Source: Escherichia coli O127:H6 str. E2348/69 (GTDB lineage: Bacteria > Pseudomonadota > Gammaproteobacteria > Enterobacterales > Enterobacteriaceae). Taken from it: a DNA stretch of 64,000 nucleotides. Position 1 is the stretch's first letter. Every line of letters starts with the position of its first letter. Of this stretch, positions 46,941-55,281 are shown piece by piece. The position numbers were made by a program, and so were the translations under genes. The notes beneath the pieces were generated by a model that ran no database searches, had not been told where the DNA came from, and saw nothing but the letters and a program-made list of their open reading frames with translations. The stretch lies in the NCBI RefSeq assembly GCF_000026545.1, contig NC_011601.1; one strand, written 5' to 3'.

Positions 46941-49763
46941 ATGACGGCAGAGTACATCAGGGACTGGCAACAACCGCGCCACGCAGTGGGGCGTGAAGGA
47001 ACGGGGATCCCCGCTCCTGAATCCGCGCTTTCCTCCTGGCTGGATGCCTACCGGGCAGAGAACGAGCACCGCCAGGAAATGGCTGATGCGGCGTTCTCCG
47101 CCACGCCGCTGGGCAACCTGATTAATAAAAGCCTGGACGCACAGGAAAAACAGGACAAAACCATCACACTGGCAGGAGACGCCAGAAAACAGGCACGCGG
47201 CGCGGTGGATGAAGCCATGGCCTCGCTGCGCCTGCTGCCGTCCTATCTGCGCGATCCGCTTATTCGCCACCTCTCCTTCCTGCGCAAAAAACAGGAAGCC
47301 GATCGTCAGAAAGGAAAAAACGCCAGGCAGGCAGAACGCTATGCGCGTGGGACCCTGCGCAAAATATTCGAACGTCTGGAGCGCACCGATCACCGCTGGC
47401 TGACACCGGGTTATCGCTCCCTTGCCGGACGCGAACGCCTGGACGATTTGCTTTACCTGCCGCAGCTCAACAAACACCAGATAAAGACGCTGGCAACCAT
47501 GACGGCGGCGATGTTCAGCAGCACCTTCGAAAAACTCTGCGATGGCTTTGGCGCGACCGATGGCGAGCTGACCATGGATGTAACCCTGAAGGCGTATCAG
47601 ATGCTGGCCCGCATGGCGTTACACCTGCACGCCATGCCTCCACATTATGACGCACTGACAACAGACAAAGACCGGAGGAACGAACCGGACACGGAGCTGC
47701 TGCCGGGCGCAATCCTTCGCCTGACCTGTGCGGAATGGTGGAAACGCAAACTGTGGCTGTTACGTTGCGAGTGGAGAGAAGAACAACTCCGCGCCGCCTG
47801 TCTGGTTTCCAGAAAAACATCGCCCTATCTGAGCCAGGACGCGTTAAGCGAGTTTCGCGCACAGCGCGAGAAAACACGCGATTTCCTGAAAAGTTTCATG
47901 CTGGAAAACGAAGACGGGTTCACGATTGATCTCGAGACAGTGTATTACGCGGGAGTAAGTAACCCGGTTCACCGTAAGGCAGAAATGATGGCCACCATGA
48001 AGGGACTGGAACTTCTGGCCGAAGCCCGTGGCGACAGAGCGGTGTTTCTGACTGTCACCTGCCCGTCAAAATACCACGCAACAACGGAGAACGGTCATCC
48101 GAACCCCAAATGGAACGGGGCCACCATGCGCGACTCCAGCGATTACCTGGTTAACACGTTTTTTGCGGCGGTCCGCAAAAAACTGAACCGCGACGGCCTG
48201 CGCTGGTATGGCATCCGCACGGTGGAGCCTCACCATGACGGCACCGTGCACTGGCATATGATGGTCTTTGCTCATCCGGAAGAAATCGACAGCATCGTGA
48301 CCATCACCCGCGATATTGCCATTCAGGAAGACCGCCACGAGCTGGGCAATGATATTACTCCGCGCTTTAAGGTGGAGTACGTCGACGGCACCAAAGGCAC
48401 GCCAACCAGCTACATCGCCACCTACATCGGAAAAAACCTGGACAGCCGCGCCGTGGATGGCATCGACCCGAAAACGGGCAAACCACGCGTTGACCACGAA
48501 ACCGGAAAATCAATGGCCGAGAGCGTGGAGCGCGCCATCGGTTGGGCACGCCTTCACCGGGTCCGCCAGTTCCAGTTCTTTGGCATCCCCTCCCGTCAGG
48601 TGTGGCGTGAACTCCGCCGCCTTGCCAGCCAGATGGCACGCAACCCGGAAGGCCCGCAACGGCTGAAGGATGACGCAATGGATGCGGTACTCGCTGCCGC
48701 TGATGCCGGATGTTTTGCCACCTACATAGAGAAACAGGGCGGTGTACTTGTTCCACGCAAAGACTACCTGATTCGCACCGCCTACGACCTCGCCGATGAG
48801 CTGAACGATTACGGCGAACAGAGTGTACAGATTTACGGGATCTGGTCACCACTCATCGGGGAATCCTCCCGTGTGTGCACGCACCCGGATAACTGGAAGC
48901 TGGTAAGACGTAAACCGGAACAGGAAGGCAGCGCCCACGAAAATGGTTTTGACCTTCAGGGCGGCCCTGCCGCCCCTTGGACTCGTGGCAATAACTGTCC
49001 CCGTGTACAGGAAACGGACAACAACGGGACAGAACAGCCGGAAGAACGGCCAGCACCGTGGCCGCAGCTCCCTGACGGCGTTGAAGTGAACGAATGGGTG
49101 CGCTCACTGAAACGGCACGAACGCCGGGCGCTGATGCGTTCGCTTCGTGACAAACAGGCAAAAAACAGCAGTGATGAAATGCAGAGCTGGACACAGAGCC
49201 GCAAACAGCAGCGGCCTTTGCCTGATAACCACGAATTACTCGCTAAAGAATGGCGGGAGTCTGCTGAATCTCTCGGCCTGCATATCGGTGAACAGCAGAT
49301 GCAGCACCTGTTACGGGGCGGCAGCCTGTACGTTGACGGCAGCATCATTGCACCGCAGGGATATGAAATTGTACGTAAACCGGATACCCGCCCGGACAGC
49401 CGAATCACGCAGCTCTGGCAACGCCTGAGCCGTAACCACGGCGTAAGCAGCACGGAGATCCGCCATAACCCGGTCGCCAGCTATCTGGAACAACTAGGGG
49501 CATCAGACCCTGAAGCCGCCGCACGCCTGGCATCCACACTTCAGCAAGACCAGAACACCATGAAAACACCCGTTACCGTACTTTCTGACATGCTGCGCGC
49601 CATCCGCGACGCAGAGCACGAACAGAGAATCAGTGAAACAACTGAACGCGCCCGCCGCAAAGCAGACCTGCTGCGGGGTGGCCTGACCAGTGGAAACAAA
49701 AAACAGACAAAAACGGGATTCACAAATCCCGTAAATGAGCAAAAAACGCGCCGCGATATATGA
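46941..49763 (+). CDS. A: Rolling-circle replication initiator (P2 gpA-like HUH endonuclease), 940 aa
   Basis: HUH motif (GTVHWHMMVF) and Y-x3-Y active-site pair (YIATYIGKN) as in P2 A. Confidence 0.85.
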   Translation: MTAEYIRDWQQPRHAVGREGTGIPAPESALSSWLDAYRAENEHRQEMADAAFSATPLGNLINKSLDAQEKQDKTITLAGDARKQARGAVDEAMASLRLLPSYLRDPLIRHLSFLRKKQEADRQKGKNARQAERYARGTLRKIFERLERTDHRWLTPGYRSLAGRERLDDLLYLPQLNKHQIKTLATMTAAMFSSTFEKLCDGFGATDGELTMDVTLKAYQMLARMALHLHAMPPHYDALTTDKDRRNEPDTELLPGAILRLTCAEWWKRKLWLLRCEWREEQLRAACLVSRKTSPYLSQDALSEFRAQREKTRDFLKSFMLENEDGFTIDLETVYYAGVSNPVHRKAEMMATMKGLELLAEARGDRAVFLTVTCPSKYHATTENGHPNPKWNGATMRDSSDYLVNTFFAAVRKKLNRDGLRWYGIRTVEPHHDGTVHWHMMVFAHPEEIDSIVTITRDIAIQEDRHELGNDITPRFKVEYVDGTKGTPTSYIATYIGKNLDSRAVDGIDPKTGKPRVDHETGKSMAESVERAIGWARLHRVRQFQFFGIPSRQVWRELRRLASQMARNPEGPQRLKDDAMDAVLAAADAGCFATYIEKQGGVLVPRKDYLIRTAYDLADELNDYGEQSVQIYGIWSPLIGESSRVCTHPDNWKLVRRKPEQEGSAHENGFDLQGGPAAPWTRGNNCPRVQETDNNGTEQPEERPAPWPQLPDGVEVNEWVRSLKRHERRALMRSLRDKQAKNSSDEMQSWTQSRKQQRPLPDNHELLAKEWRESAESLGLHIGEQQMQHLLRGGSLYVDGSIIAPQGYEIVRKPDTRPDSRITQLWQRLSRNHGVSSTEIRHNPVASYLEQLGASDPEAAARLASTLQQDQNTMKTPVTVLSDMLRAIRDAEHEQRISETTERARRKADLLRGGLTSGNKKQTKTGFTNPVNEQKTRRDI

Positions 49764-49839: not shown

Positions 49840-50799
49840 ATGAAAATTTGTATCGACGACGGCTCCACCAACATCAAGCTGGCATGGACTGAGAACGGCG
49901 AACACCGCAACGCCATCAGCCCGAACAGCTTCAAGTCGGAATGGTCTGCGCCGTTCGGTGGCACGCAGCCCGCGAACTACATGCTTGATGGCGTGCGCTA
50001 TGGTTTTGATCCGGTCAGCGATCGCTTTGTCCAGACGACCGACACGCAATACCAGTACAGCGATGTGAATGTCATTGCCATTCATCATGCGCTGGTCAAA
50101 TCAGGCATCACGCCACAGGAGGTGGATGTGGTTGTCACCCTGCCACTGAGCGAGTATTTCGACACAAACGCACAGCCGGACATGGCCAACATCAACCGCA
50201 AAAAAGCGAACGTTATGCGCCCGGTGGAGTACCAAAACGGCGAGGCATTCACTATCCGTAACGTGCGGGTTATGCCTGAATCCATTCCGGCTGGCTTTAA
50301 AGCACTGGCTGACATGAGTCCGTTTGAATCCCTGCTGATTGTGGATTTGGGCGGAACCACGCTGGATGTGGCAAAGGTTCAGGGGCAACTGGCAGGTATC
50401 AGCCAGGTGTTTTGCGATCCACACGTAGGCGTTTCTCTGATGGCCGATGCCGTGCTGTCGGTGATGGCCACCAACGGTATGCGCACCAGTCACCACATCG
50501 CCAATACCATTATCGAACATCGCCACGATGAAGCCTGGCTGCGCCAGCACATCCACAATGACGCGCATTACGCCAGCCTGATGGCAGTTATTCGTGAAAA
50601 GGAGGAAACACTGAAACAACGCGTGATCCGCGCGCTGGCGGTTTTTTCGGGTTACGGGCGGGTGATGGTTGTCGGTGGAGGGGCGGAGATTGTGGCACCC
50701 GCTATCCGCGAAGCCTGCGGAGTTAATGCGACTTTCATCGCGGACGGGGTGCCACAGTTTGCTCTGGTTAATGGGCTGTACGCAATGGACAAGGAGTAA
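49840..50799 (+). CDS. parM: ParM/StbA-like actin-type partition ATPase
   Basis: IDDGSTNIKL...ISPNSFK...YSDVNVIAIHHAL...RKKANV...VMPESIPAG...DLGGTTLD...VVGGGAE closely parallels plasmid R1 ParM. Confidence 0.85.
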   Translation: MKICIDDGSTNIKLAWTENGEHRNAISPNSFKSEWSAPFGGTQPANYMLDGVRYGFDPVSDRFVQTTDTQYQYSDVNVIAIHHALVKSGITPQEVDVVVTLPLSEYFDTNAQPDMANINRKKANVMRPVEYQNGEAFTIRNVRVMPESIPAGFKALADMSPFESLLIVDLGGTTLDVAKVQGQLAGISQVFCDPHVGVSLMADAVLSVMATNGMRTSHHIANTIIEHRHDEAWLRQHIHNDAHYASLMAVIREKEETLKQRVIRALAVFSGYGRVMVVGGGAEIVAPAIREACGVNATFIADGVPQFALVNGLYAMDKE

Positions 50800-50803
50800 A
50801 CCA

Positions 50804-51115
50804 ATGACGACTCCAACCAGACGGATAAGTTTCTATCTGAAGCCCACCGCCGTCAAGAACGAAGGAGAAGCATGCGCCTGGCTGGACAGCCTTACACCAG
50901 AAGCCCGCAAAAGCGGCCAACGCGTGGCTTTTCTGGCCGGGCTGGCACTTCTGAAAATGAATCCGGCAGAGGCTTACCGACTGGCTGCATGGGCTGATGA
51001 TGAGGTGTTATCAGTGACACAAACCAAGACAGAACGCCCCGCGTCACAGCCAGTATCAACCGCACAGATAACCAGTCAGATGGCCGGAAATATCCGGGCG
51101 TTATTTCCTGAATAA
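50804..51115 (+). CDS. parR: ParR-like centromere-binding adaptor
   Basis: RRISFYLKP...WLDSLTPEARKSGQRVAFLAGLAL...RALFPE parallels R1 ParR (RTIAFKLNP...TLDSIP..RS..RAALTAGLAL...SLFPKE); internal-Met start. Confidence 0.7.
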   Translation: MTTPTRRISFYLKPTAVKNEGEACAWLDSLTPEARKSGQRVAFLAGLALLKMNPAEAYRLAAWADDEVLSVTQTKTERPASQPVSTAQITSQMAGNIRALFPE

Positions 51116-51493
51116 CATCAGGGCGTATTCGCCCTGCCACCAATCCCATAACATAAAGAACGGGGTGCAAATCACTATACACCCCGTTCCAATACAAACC
51201 ATCAGAAGATCTACACATCTTTCTCAAATGGCCAAGTAATCGAGCTGGTTCAGGAATAAGCATGCTGCCAACACAAGTGAAGGAGATAAAACTGTAGAAC
51301 TGATCAATCGTTGGAAACAAGTATTGACAGTATGTTCGAGTAACCCAACTGGATAGATTTTATGCTGATTATCCATACAGTAAAAAAGTAAGGATACTCT
51401 TTGAATTACGCCAGCAAGAGTGGTAACATTAGTCAATGATTTTCATTAATGTAGTTACCAGCTTACACAAGCTGATGTTTTATTGGGGGTTTT

Positions 51494-52576
51494 ATGGTAA
51501 ACGTGAGGGAGGATGAACTTTTCAAACTCATCGAGCAAGGCATCAAAGGCAACGCAAATGCATTTACACTCCTATGCAGAAAGATGATTAACAACATCCG
51601 TAAAAATGATGAGGCTTTAGCTTCTAAGCTGGCTTCGTTAGTTGCTGAGGGAACAGTATTACGTGGGGCATCTAGTAAGGCTCCTATGCCTGTGGATGGA
51701 GACTCCAGACGAAACCTTTTGCAGGAAACATCTGTCAACGCAATTGTTGAAGAACCTGTATGGAATACGGATATCTCAAAGAAGCTGGAGTCAATTGTTA
51801 ACGAAAGAGAGAATGCGGTTTCTTTGTTCAAAGCTGGTCTTGAACCTGTGAAGACGGTTTTACTTTCTGGCCCGCCAGGCGTAGGCAAAACAATGTCCGC
51901 ACATTGGCTTGCTGCAAAGTTAAATTTACCTCTTTTAACATTGGATCTCTCATCTGTAATGAGTTCTCTTTTGGGAAAAACAGGTAATAATATTAAATCC
52001 GTTATGGATTATGCCAAAGAGAAACCATGTGTCCTTTTGCTTGATGAATTTGATGCTGTTGCAAAAAGACGTGATGATGACAGGGACGTTGGAGAATTAA
52101 AACGTTTAGTTACTGTACTCCTACAGACCATAGATGAGTGGCCAGCGACCTCGCTTCTTGTTGCTGCGACTAATCACCCTGATATCTTAGATCCGGCTGT
52201 TTGGCGTCGATTTGAGCACATCCTTAAATTTAATATGCCATCAGTAGAACTGATAGATAGATATTTAGTCAATCATAATATTGAACCTGAACTATCTAAA
52301 AAACTTGCACCATTATTAGATGGCATGTCCTTTGCCATCATTAACCGTATTTTGAATTTCTCCAAAAAGAATGAGGTACTTAGAAATATTCCATTTGAAA
52401 GCTCATTAATAGAAGCCGTAATTACGGAGAGGGTTTCATTGGATGAGTTTAGCGATAATGATCTCAATATAATTAAATATCATTTTGACGGTTTTTCAAA
52501 TAGGAAGATAGCTGAATTAGTTGGTGTTTCACATCCAACAATCGCGAATAAATTACAAAAGTGGGGGATTAAATGA
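51494..52576 (+). CDS. Classic-clade AAA+ ATPase with C-terminal LuxR/GerE-like HTH (360 aa); candidate defence component
   Basis: Walker A GPPGVGKT (aa 126-133), Walker B LLLDEFD (aa 181-187), sensor-1 ATN, second-region-of-homology-like DILDPAVWRRFEH; C-terminal NRKIAELVGVSHPTIANKLQKWGI HTH. Confidence 0.85.
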   Translation: MVNVREDELFKLIEQGIKGNANAFTLLCRKMINNIRKNDEALASKLASLVAEGTVLRGASSKAPMPVDGDSRRNLLQETSVNAIVEEPVWNTDISKKLESIVNERENAVSLFKAGLEPVKTVLLSGPPGVGKTMSAHWLAAKLNLPLLTLDLSSVMSSLLGKTGNNIKSVMDYAKEKPCVLLLDEFDAVAKRRDDDRDVGELKRLVTVLLQTIDEWPATSLLVAATNHPDILDPAVWRRFEHILKFNMPSVELIDRYLVNHNIEPELSKKLAPLLDGMSFAIINRILNFSKKNEVLRNIPFESSLIEAVITERVSLDEFSDNDLNIIKYHFDGFSNRKIAELVGVSHPTIANKLQKWGIK

Positions 52577-54777
52577 TGGAAAGGAACTTACTTTTAGGTA
52601 ACGGTCATGTTCTGACAAAAAAGGAACCTTTGCCTAAAGGAAGGGATGGTAAGCGCTATCCCTATACTCTTGAAGAAGTAAGGGAGCATTTAAACCCAGA
52701 GATTGATACTTTACTCTCACGCTTTCGCAGTTTGGATGATGCGGCTAAGCCAAGGGGGGAGAGTGTATTCAATTTAACTTTACACCCAGCGTTTTTGGGT
52801 AAAAGCTACTTTCCGGAAGGATTGCTTAGAGCGACAGGTTTACGGGATGTCGGCAGCCGTCAGGTAATCATTCGCCCACGGAAAGCGGCACGTCAGTGCG
52901 ATCAGAATAAGGACTTAGTAACGGCGCAACTGTTTGTTAGCGGTGATGATGATGCCGTTATAAGATTTAAGGAAATTTTAAATTCCCCTACAGCTCCGAA
53001 GGGCGTACAAAAGGATTTGATCGAAATTGAAAGTGTTAGCTTTTTTGAAGGAAAAGAGAGAGCACGCAATTTTGAGCATGCGAAAAGTGATTTGATAAAA
53101 TTTGAAGTGGTTCTTCATGCTGGGGTTGAAGACGATGATATCGTTAAAGCCTATATTAGCTATGCGGCACAATATGATGTCTCTGTTGATTACAAAAGTA
53201 GAATCCAAGTTGGTGGGCTGACTTTCATCGTTGCACACGCGCGACCTGAAGATATGAAAAAAACACTCGATTTTTCATTAATCCGCGTTGTGCGGCCGAT
53301 GCCGTCTCTCAGGTGTACTCAGCCGAACATTGTCAGAAAGTTATCTAATATAGTTACACCGGAGCTCCCTAATTCTAAAGCTGTTCTTGAATCCGAACGT
53401 ATTGCCATTTTTGATGGTGGCTTGGGGACAGCTGACTTGAGTAATTGGGTTACGGAATACGTGTATCCAGACACCAAAGAAACAAGCGGATTATTATTGC
53501 AGCACGGTAATGAAGTGACATCCACTTTCTTATTCGGACGTGTCGAGGAAAATGCACCTTCTTTTAAAAGACCGTTTATGAATGTAGATCATTATAGAGT
53601 TCTTTCACCGACATCAGGTGACAATGGCAATTGGGATTTATTTGATGTCCTTAAGAAAATACAGTCCGTTCTTGATAGTGGTGACTATAAGTTCGCTAAT
53701 CTAAGTATTGGTCCTCATCTTCCAATTGGTGATGATGAGGTTCATGTATGGACTGCTGTTTTAGACCAAATCTGTGCTAAGCATGGGATATTACTTACTG
53801 TTGCTGTTGGGAATGATGGCAATGAGGACGGTGATGCAGCGAGAATACAACCTCCTTCCGATATGGTAAACGCGCTAGCGATTGGTGCTGCTGATCGTAG
53901 CGGTGAAAAATGGGGGCGGGCACCATATAGCTGTATTGGGCCAGGCAGAAGCCCCGGATTCGTTAAACCTGATGGTGTTATTTTTGGTGGAAGCGACGAC
54001 GAGCCTTTTTACACTTACAACCCTCTGCTTGGTTCTATAGTTGGAGTTCAAGGAACCAGTTATGCCTCTCCATTAGCATTGAGAACGGCCGCTGGAGTTG
54101 CGGCTCTATCAGGAACTCCATTGAACACCATTGCATTGAAAGCGTTGCTTGTTCATCATGCTGAAACATCAAGAAAATATTCGCGTGAACATATCGGTTG
54201 GGGACGGTTTAGTGAGGATCCTAACGTTTTAATCGATTGTCCAAATGATACTGCTACAGTAATTTACTATGGTTCATTAGCAAAAAATAAATATTTAAGG
54301 GCACCGATCCCATTCCCTGATGTTCCCTTTGACGAAGCATTTGAGCTTACCGCTACTTTATGCATTCAAACCCCAGTAGATCCTGAACATTCAGTAAACT
54401 ATACAAGGGCCGGTATGCAGGTAACTTTCCGCCCAAGATTCGGCCTTGACGATACCGATACAGATGATTTCTTTGGTCAAAAAAGCCAGTATAAGACTGA
54501 AAGGGAGTGTAGGAGTGAAGGTCATAAGTGGGAAACTTGTTTGCACAGAAGCAAAAAGTTCAGTGCTGATACATTATTAAGCGATCCAGTTTTTGATATA
54601 CGGTATCATGCCCGAGATTCTTCGCGCCATGTTAAGGGAGTTTCAGCCCCTGATATGCAATATGCGATGGTAATAAGCGTAAGGGTAAAAGACTTTGATT
54701 TATATAATGTTATTCGCCAGCGATATACAATTCTGAATCCTATTCAACTGCGCACACAAATTTCTCTCGACACGTAA
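52573..54777 (+). CDS. Subtilisin-like (S8) serine peptidase, 734 aa, no signal peptide; candidate defence effector
   Basis: Catalytic order D-H-N-S: IAIFDGG (D281), HGNEVTS (H311), VAVGNDG (N414), GTSYASPLA (S496); ~270-aa N-terminal and ~230-aa C-terminal regions unassigned; start overlaps ATPase stop (ATGA). Confidence 0.85.
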   Translation: MMERNLLLGNGHVLTKKEPLPKGRDGKRYPYTLEEVREHLNPEIDTLLSRFRSLDDAAKPRGESVFNLTLHPAFLGKSYFPEGLLRATGLRDVGSRQVIIRPRKAARQCDQNKDLVTAQLFVSGDDDAVIRFKEILNSPTAPKGVQKDLIEIESVSFFEGKERARNFEHAKSDLIKFEVVLHAGVEDDDIVKAYISYAAQYDVSVDYKSRIQVGGLTFIVAHARPEDMKKTLDFSLIRVVRPMPSLRCTQPNIVRKLSNIVTPELPNSKAVLESERIAIFDGGLGTADLSNWVTEYVYPDTKETSGLLLQHGNEVTSTFLFGRVEENAPSFKRPFMNVDHYRVLSPTSGDNGNWDLFDVLKKIQSVLDSGDYKFANLSIGPHLPIGDDEVHVWTAVLDQICAKHGILLTVAVGNDGNEDGDAARIQPPSDMVNALAIGAADRSGEKWGRAPYSCIGPGRSPGFVKPDGVIFGGSDDEPFYTYNPLLGSIVGVQGTSYASPLALRTAAGVAALSGTPLNTIALKALLVHHAETSRKYSREHIGWGRFSEDPNVLIDCPNDTATVIYYGSLAKNKYLRAPIPFPDVPFDEAFELTATLCIQTPVDPEHSVNYTRAGMQVTFRPRFGLDDTDTDDFFGQKSQYKTERECRSEGHKWETCLHRSKKFSADTLLSDPVFDIRYHARDSSRHVKGVSAPDMQYAMVISVRVKDFDLYNVIRQRYTILNPIQLRTQISLDT

Positions 54778-54784
54778 TTTTTAT

Positions 54785-54806
54785 GGCCGCGAAAGCGGCC
54801 TTTTTT
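54785..54806 (+). terminator. Rho-independent terminator after the peptidase gene
   Basis: ggccgc-gaaa-gcggcc hairpin followed by T6. Confidence 0.65.
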
Positions 54807-54953
54807 CTGTAATTTTTTTATGAATTTACATGCACGATAGTGCACAAATTTGCACAATTTTTTTGAACGAATTTTTGCCCTTCTGGCCCGCGTGGCGGCT
54901 GGATCCGTCAGGGATCCGTGCGTGCACAAAAAAACGCGCTTTTTCTGCGCGCA

Positions 54954-54972
54954 GGTGACGGGGGAACAGCCC
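54954..54972. other. Candidate cos (cohesive-end) site
   Basis: ggtgacgggggaacagc resembles the P2/186 cos core GGCG(A/T)GGCGGGGAAAGCA(C/T) and lies at the expected place upstream of the Q 3' end. Confidence 0.3.
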
Positions 54973-55281
54973 GCGTTTCAGGGGGTAAATAGCATCCCCT
55001 GAACGATGTCGCAGCGACACAACAGAATGGCTGTATTTCTCACGCTGAGCGTGAAAAAGACGTGAGGGCTTTTGATTTGATGGGGTGACAGATAAGGCCG
55101 TCAAAATCGCACTGAGGCGGCGAGAACATGCAGTCAACGCGGTGGGATTGCGTAAGAGCCTGACCGTCGATGATGGCGATAAGCTGGAAGACGTCGTGAA
55201 ATTATCTGATTGATACAGGAGCTGGAGAGTCGGGGCATAAATTTTTTATGCCCCGACGAAGCAGCAGACAAGCGAAGCGCG

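Follow-up and report, generated by a model that had tools for sequence, protein, structure and literature searches.

We analysed a window of 64,000 nucleotides from Escherichia coli O127:H6 str. E2348/69 (NCBI RefSeq assembly GCF_000026545.1, contig NC_011601.1), the whole stretch to which our coordinates refer, and within it a cassette of two genes, ietA and ietS, which encode an AAA+ ATPase and an S8 peptidase. In a sequence search the window was 100% identical to the E2348/69 chromosome. By sequence, the gene pair is intact and belongs to the IetAS family, which DefenseFinder calls Gao_Iet. The two genes probably work by abortive infection, in the manner of a toxin-antitoxin pair; a P2-like prophage carries them as exchangeable cargo in its gpA-cos-gpQ hotspot. 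From the behaviour of other IetAS pairs we infer that the E2348/69 allele has anti-phage activity.

A preliminary description of this DNA, made from the letters and the open reading frames (ORFs) only, had noted a resemblance to IetAS-type pairs, and our profile searches bore this out. The ATPase and the peptidase matched PADLOC models end to end: the first aligned to IetA PDLC02196 (3.6e-89, 297.8 bits) with residues 7-356 on positions 5-370 of the 374 of the profile, and the second to IetS PDLC02197 (6.6e-41, 138.4 bits) over profile positions 24-718 of 749. Three more PADLOC IetA models and five more IetS models also matched the 360-aa and the 734-aa protein, respectively, and the only specific NCBIfam matches were the anti-phage ATPase IteA (NF042959) and the S8 family anti-phage peptidase IteS (NF042956). 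Full-length homologs of IetA and of IetS both number in the hundreds, so we regard ietA and ietS as real genes and not as chance ORFs. The two are co-oriented and overlap by 4 nt in an ATGA at 52573-52576, where the start codon of ietS shares bases with the stop codon of ietA; the ORF list and the sequence agreed on this coupling, which had been described before. The features of the locus are given in Table 1.

Table 1. Positions in the window of the ietAS genes, their signals and their prophage landmarks
Feature	Positions	Strand	Description
Replication endonuclease gene A	46941-49763		940 aa; RefSeq annotation
ParM and ParR-like/Plasmid_stab_B partition pair	49840-51115		319 aa and 103 aa; phrog_691, phrog_2515 'partition protein'
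Gene-A fossil, left module edge	51233-51363	+	Degraded 3' part of a replication gene A of the phiT5282H type; non-coding here
Candidate sigma-70 promoter	51401-51429	+	TTGAAT, 17-nt spacer, TAACAT; read from the sequence
Perfect 6-bp palindrome/hairpin	51459-51474	+	CAGCTT-ACAC-AAGCTG, between candidate promoter and ribosome-binding site (RBS)
ietA	51494-52576	+	360 aa, ATG start; classic-clade AAA+ ATPase with C-terminal helix-turn-helix (HTH); presumed antitoxin/regulator
ietS	52573-54777	+	734 aa, ATG start; cytoplasmic S8 (subtilisin-like) serine peptidase; presumed toxin/effector
Intrinsic terminator of the ietAS operon	54785-54810	+	Hairpin 54785-54800, GGCCGCGAAAGCGGCC, then T run TTTTTTCTGT
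Putative cos core of the prophage	54954-54972	.	Right-hand landmark outside ietAS; conserved 19-mer GGTGACGGGGGAACAGCCC

IetA has the domains and motifs of a classic-clade AAA+ ATPase. Pfam placed an AAA domain at residues 122-247 (1.9e-30) and an HTH_50 domain (PF18024) at residues 335-359 (1.5e-5). The Walker A motif is GPPGVGKT, with the lysine at position 132, and the Walker B motif is CVLLLDE (D184/E185); an alignment showed that K132, D184, E185, the sensor-1 residue N227, R238 and R239 are present in IetA and invariant in 18 homologs. The HTH had been proposed to be of the GerE type, an assignment that we replaced, since the GerE profile was not significant (E = 0.44) on the C-terminal HTH of IetA and HTH_50 was its best match. 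This HTH is kept throughout the clade of IetA, while the ATPases of pTiC58 and E24377A are without it in the homolog alignment. The nearest solved relatives of IetA are unfoldases of the p97/Cdc48/PAN type, and a sequence search of solved structures returned generic AAA+ and subtilisin matches only, with no structure of IetA or IetS. A leucine in the pore loop of IetA, in place of the usual aromatic residue, was dropped as an anomaly since it is the norm in its clade.

The peptidase was equally intact. The Pfam Peptidase_S8 domain covers residues 288-544 of IetS, and the catalytic triad D281, H311 and S496 and the oxyanion asparagine N414 are intact and invariant in the homolog alignment; the catalytic S496 is located in the motif GTSYA, and both it and K132 of IetA were exactly where the preliminary description had put them. 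The AlphaFold model of IetS, built with 23 homologs, was confident (predicted local distance difference test [pLDDT] 82.9, predicted template modelling score [pTM] 0.85) and showed, from the N- to the C-terminus, a long helix (33-53), two beta-alpha-beta-beta-alpha-beta units (about 63-157 and 175-242), the subtilase core and a beta-sandwich. In this model the two N-terminal domains that precede the catalytic core look ferredoxin-like and propeptide-like. No hydrophobic signal sequence was found when the N-terminus was read directly from the sequence, and IetS is therefore predicted to be cytoplasmic; it looks, in the model, like a cytoplasmic zymogen.

The position of the cassette is that of known defence cargo. 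The RefSeq annotation of E2348/69 shows an entire P2-like prophage inserted next to btuC, with the gene order integrase, repressor region, gene A, ParM, ParR-like protein, AAA ATPase and S8 peptidase, then Q and P on the opposite strand; capsid, lysis and tail genes come after the portal (Q) and terminase (P) genes. The annotation and the ORFs thus place ietAS in the interval bounded by gene A (replication endonuclease) and Q (portal), and the gpA-cos-gpQ region is an anti-phage cargo hotspot of E. coli P2-like prophages (Rousset et al. 2022), so that the earlier assignment to the A-Q cargo slot stands. We surveyed this slot, as had been proposed. Its flanks were present in 1,432 of 5,426 complete E. 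coli genomes, and the ietAS cassette was found in 31, from unrelated hosts, with a cassette identity of 97.5-100%; the other flank-matching genomes hold different genes. The cargo of the A-Q slot varies between otherwise syntenic prophages, in line with the exchange that had been suggested. The genes enclosed elsewhere by the same flanks encode Ead/Ea22-like and DUF4760 proteins, an HTH and PIN pair, a ClpX-type zinc-finger protein and hypothetical proteins, and mostly have no annotated function.

The sequence of the cassette and of its flanks also suggested how it was acquired. Comparison loci were fetched from STEC384 (L002), 600468 (L003), Enterobacter phage phiT5282H of the Peduoviridae (L004), pTiC58 (L005) and E24377A (L006). 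With blastn, positions 51233-54975 aligned to L004 6654-10402 of phiT5282H with 95.8% identity over 3,751 bp, while the portal genes of the two elements are only about 70% identical. Nucleotide identity between the two copies was 97.4% for ietA, 97.5% for ietS, 86% for the leader and 80% for the trailer, and protein identity was 97.5% for IetA and 98.5% for IetS. The first 131 bp or so of the shared stretch correspond to L004 6654-6784, which is inside the 3' end of gene A of phiT5282H. In E2348/69 this fragment translates to SNRAGSGISMLPTQVKEIK, against SSRAGAGIGMLPTQVKEIK at the C-terminus of the phiT5282H gpA, and then runs into stops and frameshifts. This fossil was left by the recombination that brought the module in from a P2-like phage in which the module directly followed gene A. 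Homology of the backbone with STEC384 starts again at 54831, and the module therefore extends from about 51233 to 54830 (about 3.6 kb). Taken together, these alignments show that the ietAS module moves between distantly related P2-like phages. The gene A product of E2348/69 is 940 aa long and that of phiT5282H 790 aa, and their C-termini are unrelated. Full-length relatives of IetS with 35-40% identity were observed on plasmids of Xanthomonas, Rhizobium, Agrobacterium, Streptomyces, Vibrio and Acinetobacter and in the filamentous Pseudomonas phage PfAC08, and a plasmid of Plesiomonas shigelloides has an 85%-identical copy; the clade therefore travels among very different mobile elements.

Comparison with described systems showed both the likeness on which the assignment is based and the distance that it has to bridge. 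The E2348/69 pair shares with IetAS (Gao_Iet) the order of AAA+ ATPase then S8 peptidase, full-length profile matches, intact motifs and carriage by mobile elements, whereas the plasmid genes named IteS by PGAP are only about 21-25% identical to the E2348/69 IetS, and the IetA of the E2348/69 clade ends in an HTH, which not every other IetA protein has. The pair at L005 27874-31374 of pTiC58 is presumed here to be the founding IetA/IetS pair, because it is the only adjacent ATPase and S8 pair in the 49-kb stretch fetched from that plasmid. It likewise consists of an ATPase followed 3 bp later by an S8 peptidase, both of which match the PADLOC IetA/IetS models, and its ATPase is 32% identical to the E2348/69 IetA (1e-45) across the AAA+ module. 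It differs in that the ATPase is 328 aa long and without an HTH, the peptidase is 836 aa long with PDLC02198 as its best PADLOC model, and the pair is located on a plasmid and not in a prophage. The allele of phiT5282H has the same slot and architecture, HTH included, and is colinear over its full length. The AAA/S8 pairs of STEC384 and 600468 occupy the same A-Q slot, include the HTH, are colinear over their full length and match the IetA/IetS models, but are only 38-47% identical to the E2348/69 pair. The partition pair is absent from phiT5282H, STEC384 and 600468. In 600468, a 186-like prophage, only 39 bp (L003 8878-8917) lie between the stop codon of the ietS-like gene and the portal gene. 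Upstream of the ietA-like gene there is a cos-like GGCGTGGCGGGGA (L003 5402-5414); the 600468 module may therefore lie on the other side of cos relative to that of E2348/69. The classical cargo of the slot, old and tin of P2, shares the position and the presumed exclusion of competing phages but consists of unrelated proteins with unrelated mechanisms.

Published work on the family provides the functional side of the comparison. IetAS first became known as a toxin-antitoxin system that stabilises the plasmid pTiC58, in which the protease is the toxin and the ATPase the antitoxin (PMC13069673); the anti-phage system Gao_Iet/IetAS is credited to Gao et al. 2020 by the papers that cite that work. 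The related S026/S025 pair of SGI1 is a functional toxin-antitoxin pair that promotes maintenance of the island (PMC5006074), and the ietAS of Bacillus cereus acts by abortive infection, triggered by the product of SPbeta yosG (bioRxiv 10.1101/2022.08.27.505566). In ietHAS, which consists of an SNF2 helicase, IetA and IetS (Liu-DS4, NAR 2026, PMC13069673), defence needs the protease activity, and a construct with a mutated ietA was not obtainable, which its authors take as support for the antitoxin role (PMC13069673). The core of AAA+ ATPase and S8 peptidase is common to ietHAS and the E2348/69 cassette, whereas the helicase gene has no counterpart in the latter. An SNF2-related gene followed by an AAA ATPase and an S8 peptidase, in the order of ietHAS, was observed at L006 4030-14793 of E24377A, and the genes of a type III restriction-modification (RM III) methylase and of a helicase/restriction protein come next; this locus lies in an island beside an integrase and insertion sequence (IS) elements, and fits the co-localisation of ietAS and RM III reported by Wu et al. 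(bioRxiv 10.1101/2022.08.21.504612). Its ATPase, which has no HTH, is 31% identical to that of E2348/69, and its peptidase aligns only over the catalytic domain, with 22% identity.

From other IetAS pairs, the module would be expected to act as follows. IetS would be a toxic protease, kept harmless by active IetA; a phage product or process would upset this control during infection, proteins of the cell and/or the phage would be cleaved by the freed IetS, and growth of the infected cell would cease before the competing phage finishes its cycle, which would thereby protect the lysogen population and its prophage. The folds suggest three additions of our own, namely that the propeptide-like N-terminal domains may hold IetS in a zymogen-like, self-inhibited state, that IetA may act directly on IetS as a hexameric unfoldase, and that the HTH may serve in autoregulation or in the sensing of DNA. 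It is quite unlikely, but worth stating, that the HTH-bearing clade is a mechanistically distinct subtype of IetAS, in which a DNA-binding AAA+ unfoldase directly gates a cytoplasmic, zymogen-like subtilase with its two propeptide-like domains; infection, sensed on DNA or via a phage protein, would then make the unfoldase release or activate a protease that it had kept inactive. Were this so, IetAS would have its first mechanistic model, and bacterial immunity an example of protease activation under the control of an unfoldase.

Several results weigh against the assignment of a defence function to this allele. The NCBIfam scores were below the equivalog level, with 253.1 bits against a cut-off of 510 bits for IteA_antiphage and 115.7 bits against 900 bits for IteS_antiphage, and by this measure the pair does not belong to the NCBI reference clade as an equivalog; these scores below the curated cut-offs are also the reason for the generic RefSeq names 'AAA family ATPase' and 'S8 family peptidase'. 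The BLASTP comparison of the pTiC58 peptidase with the E2348/69 IetS was not significant (E = 0.33), so that the two are linked via shared PADLOC profiles only and function is transferred across a large distance. A literature search found no experiment on the E2348/69 allele or on the HTH-bearing clade in which it sits. The ietAS of ECOR52 alone gave limited protection (Wu et al.). We had considered whether the ECOR52 allele is that of E2348/69 and rejected this, as a search of the window with up to 3 mismatches allowed did not find the template parts of primers FN0414/FN0415; they had no exact match in any fetched comparison locus. The forward primer implies an IetA that starts with MKDGS, against MVNVRE in E2348/69, and with the primer mismatch this means that the ECOR52 allele differs and that its data are not directly transferable.

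Other functions for the two genes were weighed on the same evidence. An unlikely one is that ietAS is mainly an addiction module, which by post-segregational killing would stabilise the P2-like element, perhaps in a state that is extrachromosomal and plasmid-like, jointly with the adjacent ParM/ParR-like genes. The plasmid-stabilising origin of IetAS in pTiC58 (PMC13069673) and the island maintenance promoted by the SGI1 S026/S025 pair (PMC5006074) fit this reading, as does the location of ietAS directly after the ParM/ParR-like pair; about a quarter of P2-like phages have a putative partition system in the gpA-gpQ hotspot, which, as suggested by Rousset et al. 2022, may let these prophages persist as plasmids. 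However, the AAA/S8 pairs of phiT5282H, STEC384 and 600468 occur without ParMR, most relatives with ParMR carry other cargo, and the gene-A fossil shows that the ietAS module came separately, from a phage without ParMR. The A-Q slot is, moreover, dominated by defence cargo (Rousset et al. 2022), and members of the IetAS family do restrict phages (PMC13069673, bioRxiv 10.1101/2022.08.27.505566). Stabilising and defence roles of ietAS are not mutually exclusive.

That the two genes are inactive leftover cargo is very improbable, even if the consensus scan gave no strong promoter upstream of ietA and our literature search found no experiment on the allele. Neither ORF is truncated and no catalytic residue is lost; the identity of the cassette is 97.5-100% among the 31 complete genomes and 97-98% with the copy in a sequenced phage, and phiT5282H conserves the hexamers of the candidate promoter, the RBS and the terminator. 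We give almost no credence to the idea that the S8 peptidase serves the morphogenesis or lysis of the phage and is assisted by the ATPase as a chaperone. Some phages do encode maturation proteases, and each of the two proteins has a PHROGs family (phrog_3757 and phrog_3964), neither with an assigned function; but the cassette is present in only 31 of the approximately 1,430 prophages with the same flanks, scaffold, capsid and lysis genes of the standard P2 set are present in this prophage, and the homologs are common outside phages, on plasmids and chromosomes of many phyla. We retain an abortive-infection module of the IetAS family as the most probable reading.

Part of these results repeats what published catalogues hold, and in this respect the finding is an ordinary one, as the system type, the hotspot and the locus in E2348/69 are all listed. 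Table S1 of Wu et al. (bioRxiv 10.1101/2022.08.21.504612) gives a PADLOC call of ietAS in GCF_000026545.1 / NC_011601.1 at 1875494-1878777 (3,284 bp), an interval that we equated with 51494-54777 by length alone (3,284 bp in both), and Table S5A of Rousset et al. 2022 gives the same gene arrangement in the P2 A-Q hotspot with the same four protein accessions as the E2348/69 annotation. IetAS is not mentioned by Vassallo et al. 2022, and a literature search turned up no name for the P2-like prophage of E2348/69. What our analysis adds is the position of the allele in a divergent clade with an HTH on IetA, far below the NCBIfam cut-offs, the delimitation of a module of about 3.6 kb that is 96% identical to that of phiT5282H and carries a gene-A fossil, and the zymogen-like look of IetS. 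E2348/69 is the prototype strain of enteropathogenic E. coli (EPEC), and the ietAS module is among its few annotated defence systems. As a compact module of 3.6 kb, near-identical in the sequenced phage phiT5282H, it would be a convenient model for the control of a cytoplasmic subtilase by an AAA+ ATPase.

The cassette stands out from its flanks in composition. Its GC content was 0.39 in ietA and 0.43 in ietS, against 0.58 in gene A, 0.56 in parM, 0.53 in Q and 0.54 in P, which agrees with the higher AT content that had been noted. The cassette had also been said to have its own leader and terminator. The terminator was found, with a GC-rich stem and a hairpin that begins 8 nt past the stop codon of ietS, and its sequence is the same in phiT5282H. 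The leader stood only in part, since 51233-51363 of the 378 non-coding bp upstream of ietA (51116-51493) align to the end of the phiT5282H gene A and are thus the gene-A fossil. A match below the gathering score (32 bits against 34) to the Rfam family 'Histone3 3' UTR stem-loop' at 54760-54805 on the minus strand is the ietS terminator hairpin.

A promoter scan of 51116-51493 reported no strong sigma-70 site. The candidate ietA promoter agrees with the consensus at 8 of 12 positions, which is why the scan left it unreported, and phiT5282H keeps both of its hexamers (TTGAAT / TAAGAT) with a different spacer, together with the RBS. The counterpart of the palindrome in phiT5282H is CAACTT-ATGT-AAGTTG, with one compensatory change. 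The predicted RNA fold at 51459-51474 was not more stable than shuffled sequence (z = 0.59), and no equivalent palindrome was found in the leaders of the HTH-bearing alleles of STEC384 and 600468. As a possible operator for the HTH of IetA, the palindrome is a weak lead.

At the right-hand side of the module, some 180 bp past ietS, the 19-mer GGTGACGGGGGAACAGCCC does not differ between E2348/69, phiT5282H and STEC384, amid diverging neighbour sequence. These three phages have different cargo or backbone, and the 19-mer is a plausible cos core; we consider this assignment putative. The 19-mer agrees at 13 of 19 positions with what we take to be the P2 cohesive-end sequence, which itself had no match in the whole window within 3 mismatches. 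On the other side of the cassette, two terminator-like hairpins, one with a 13-bp stem, were observed on the minus strand at 51119-51190, right after the stop codon of the ParR-like gene, and may be a bidirectional terminator or a junction element.

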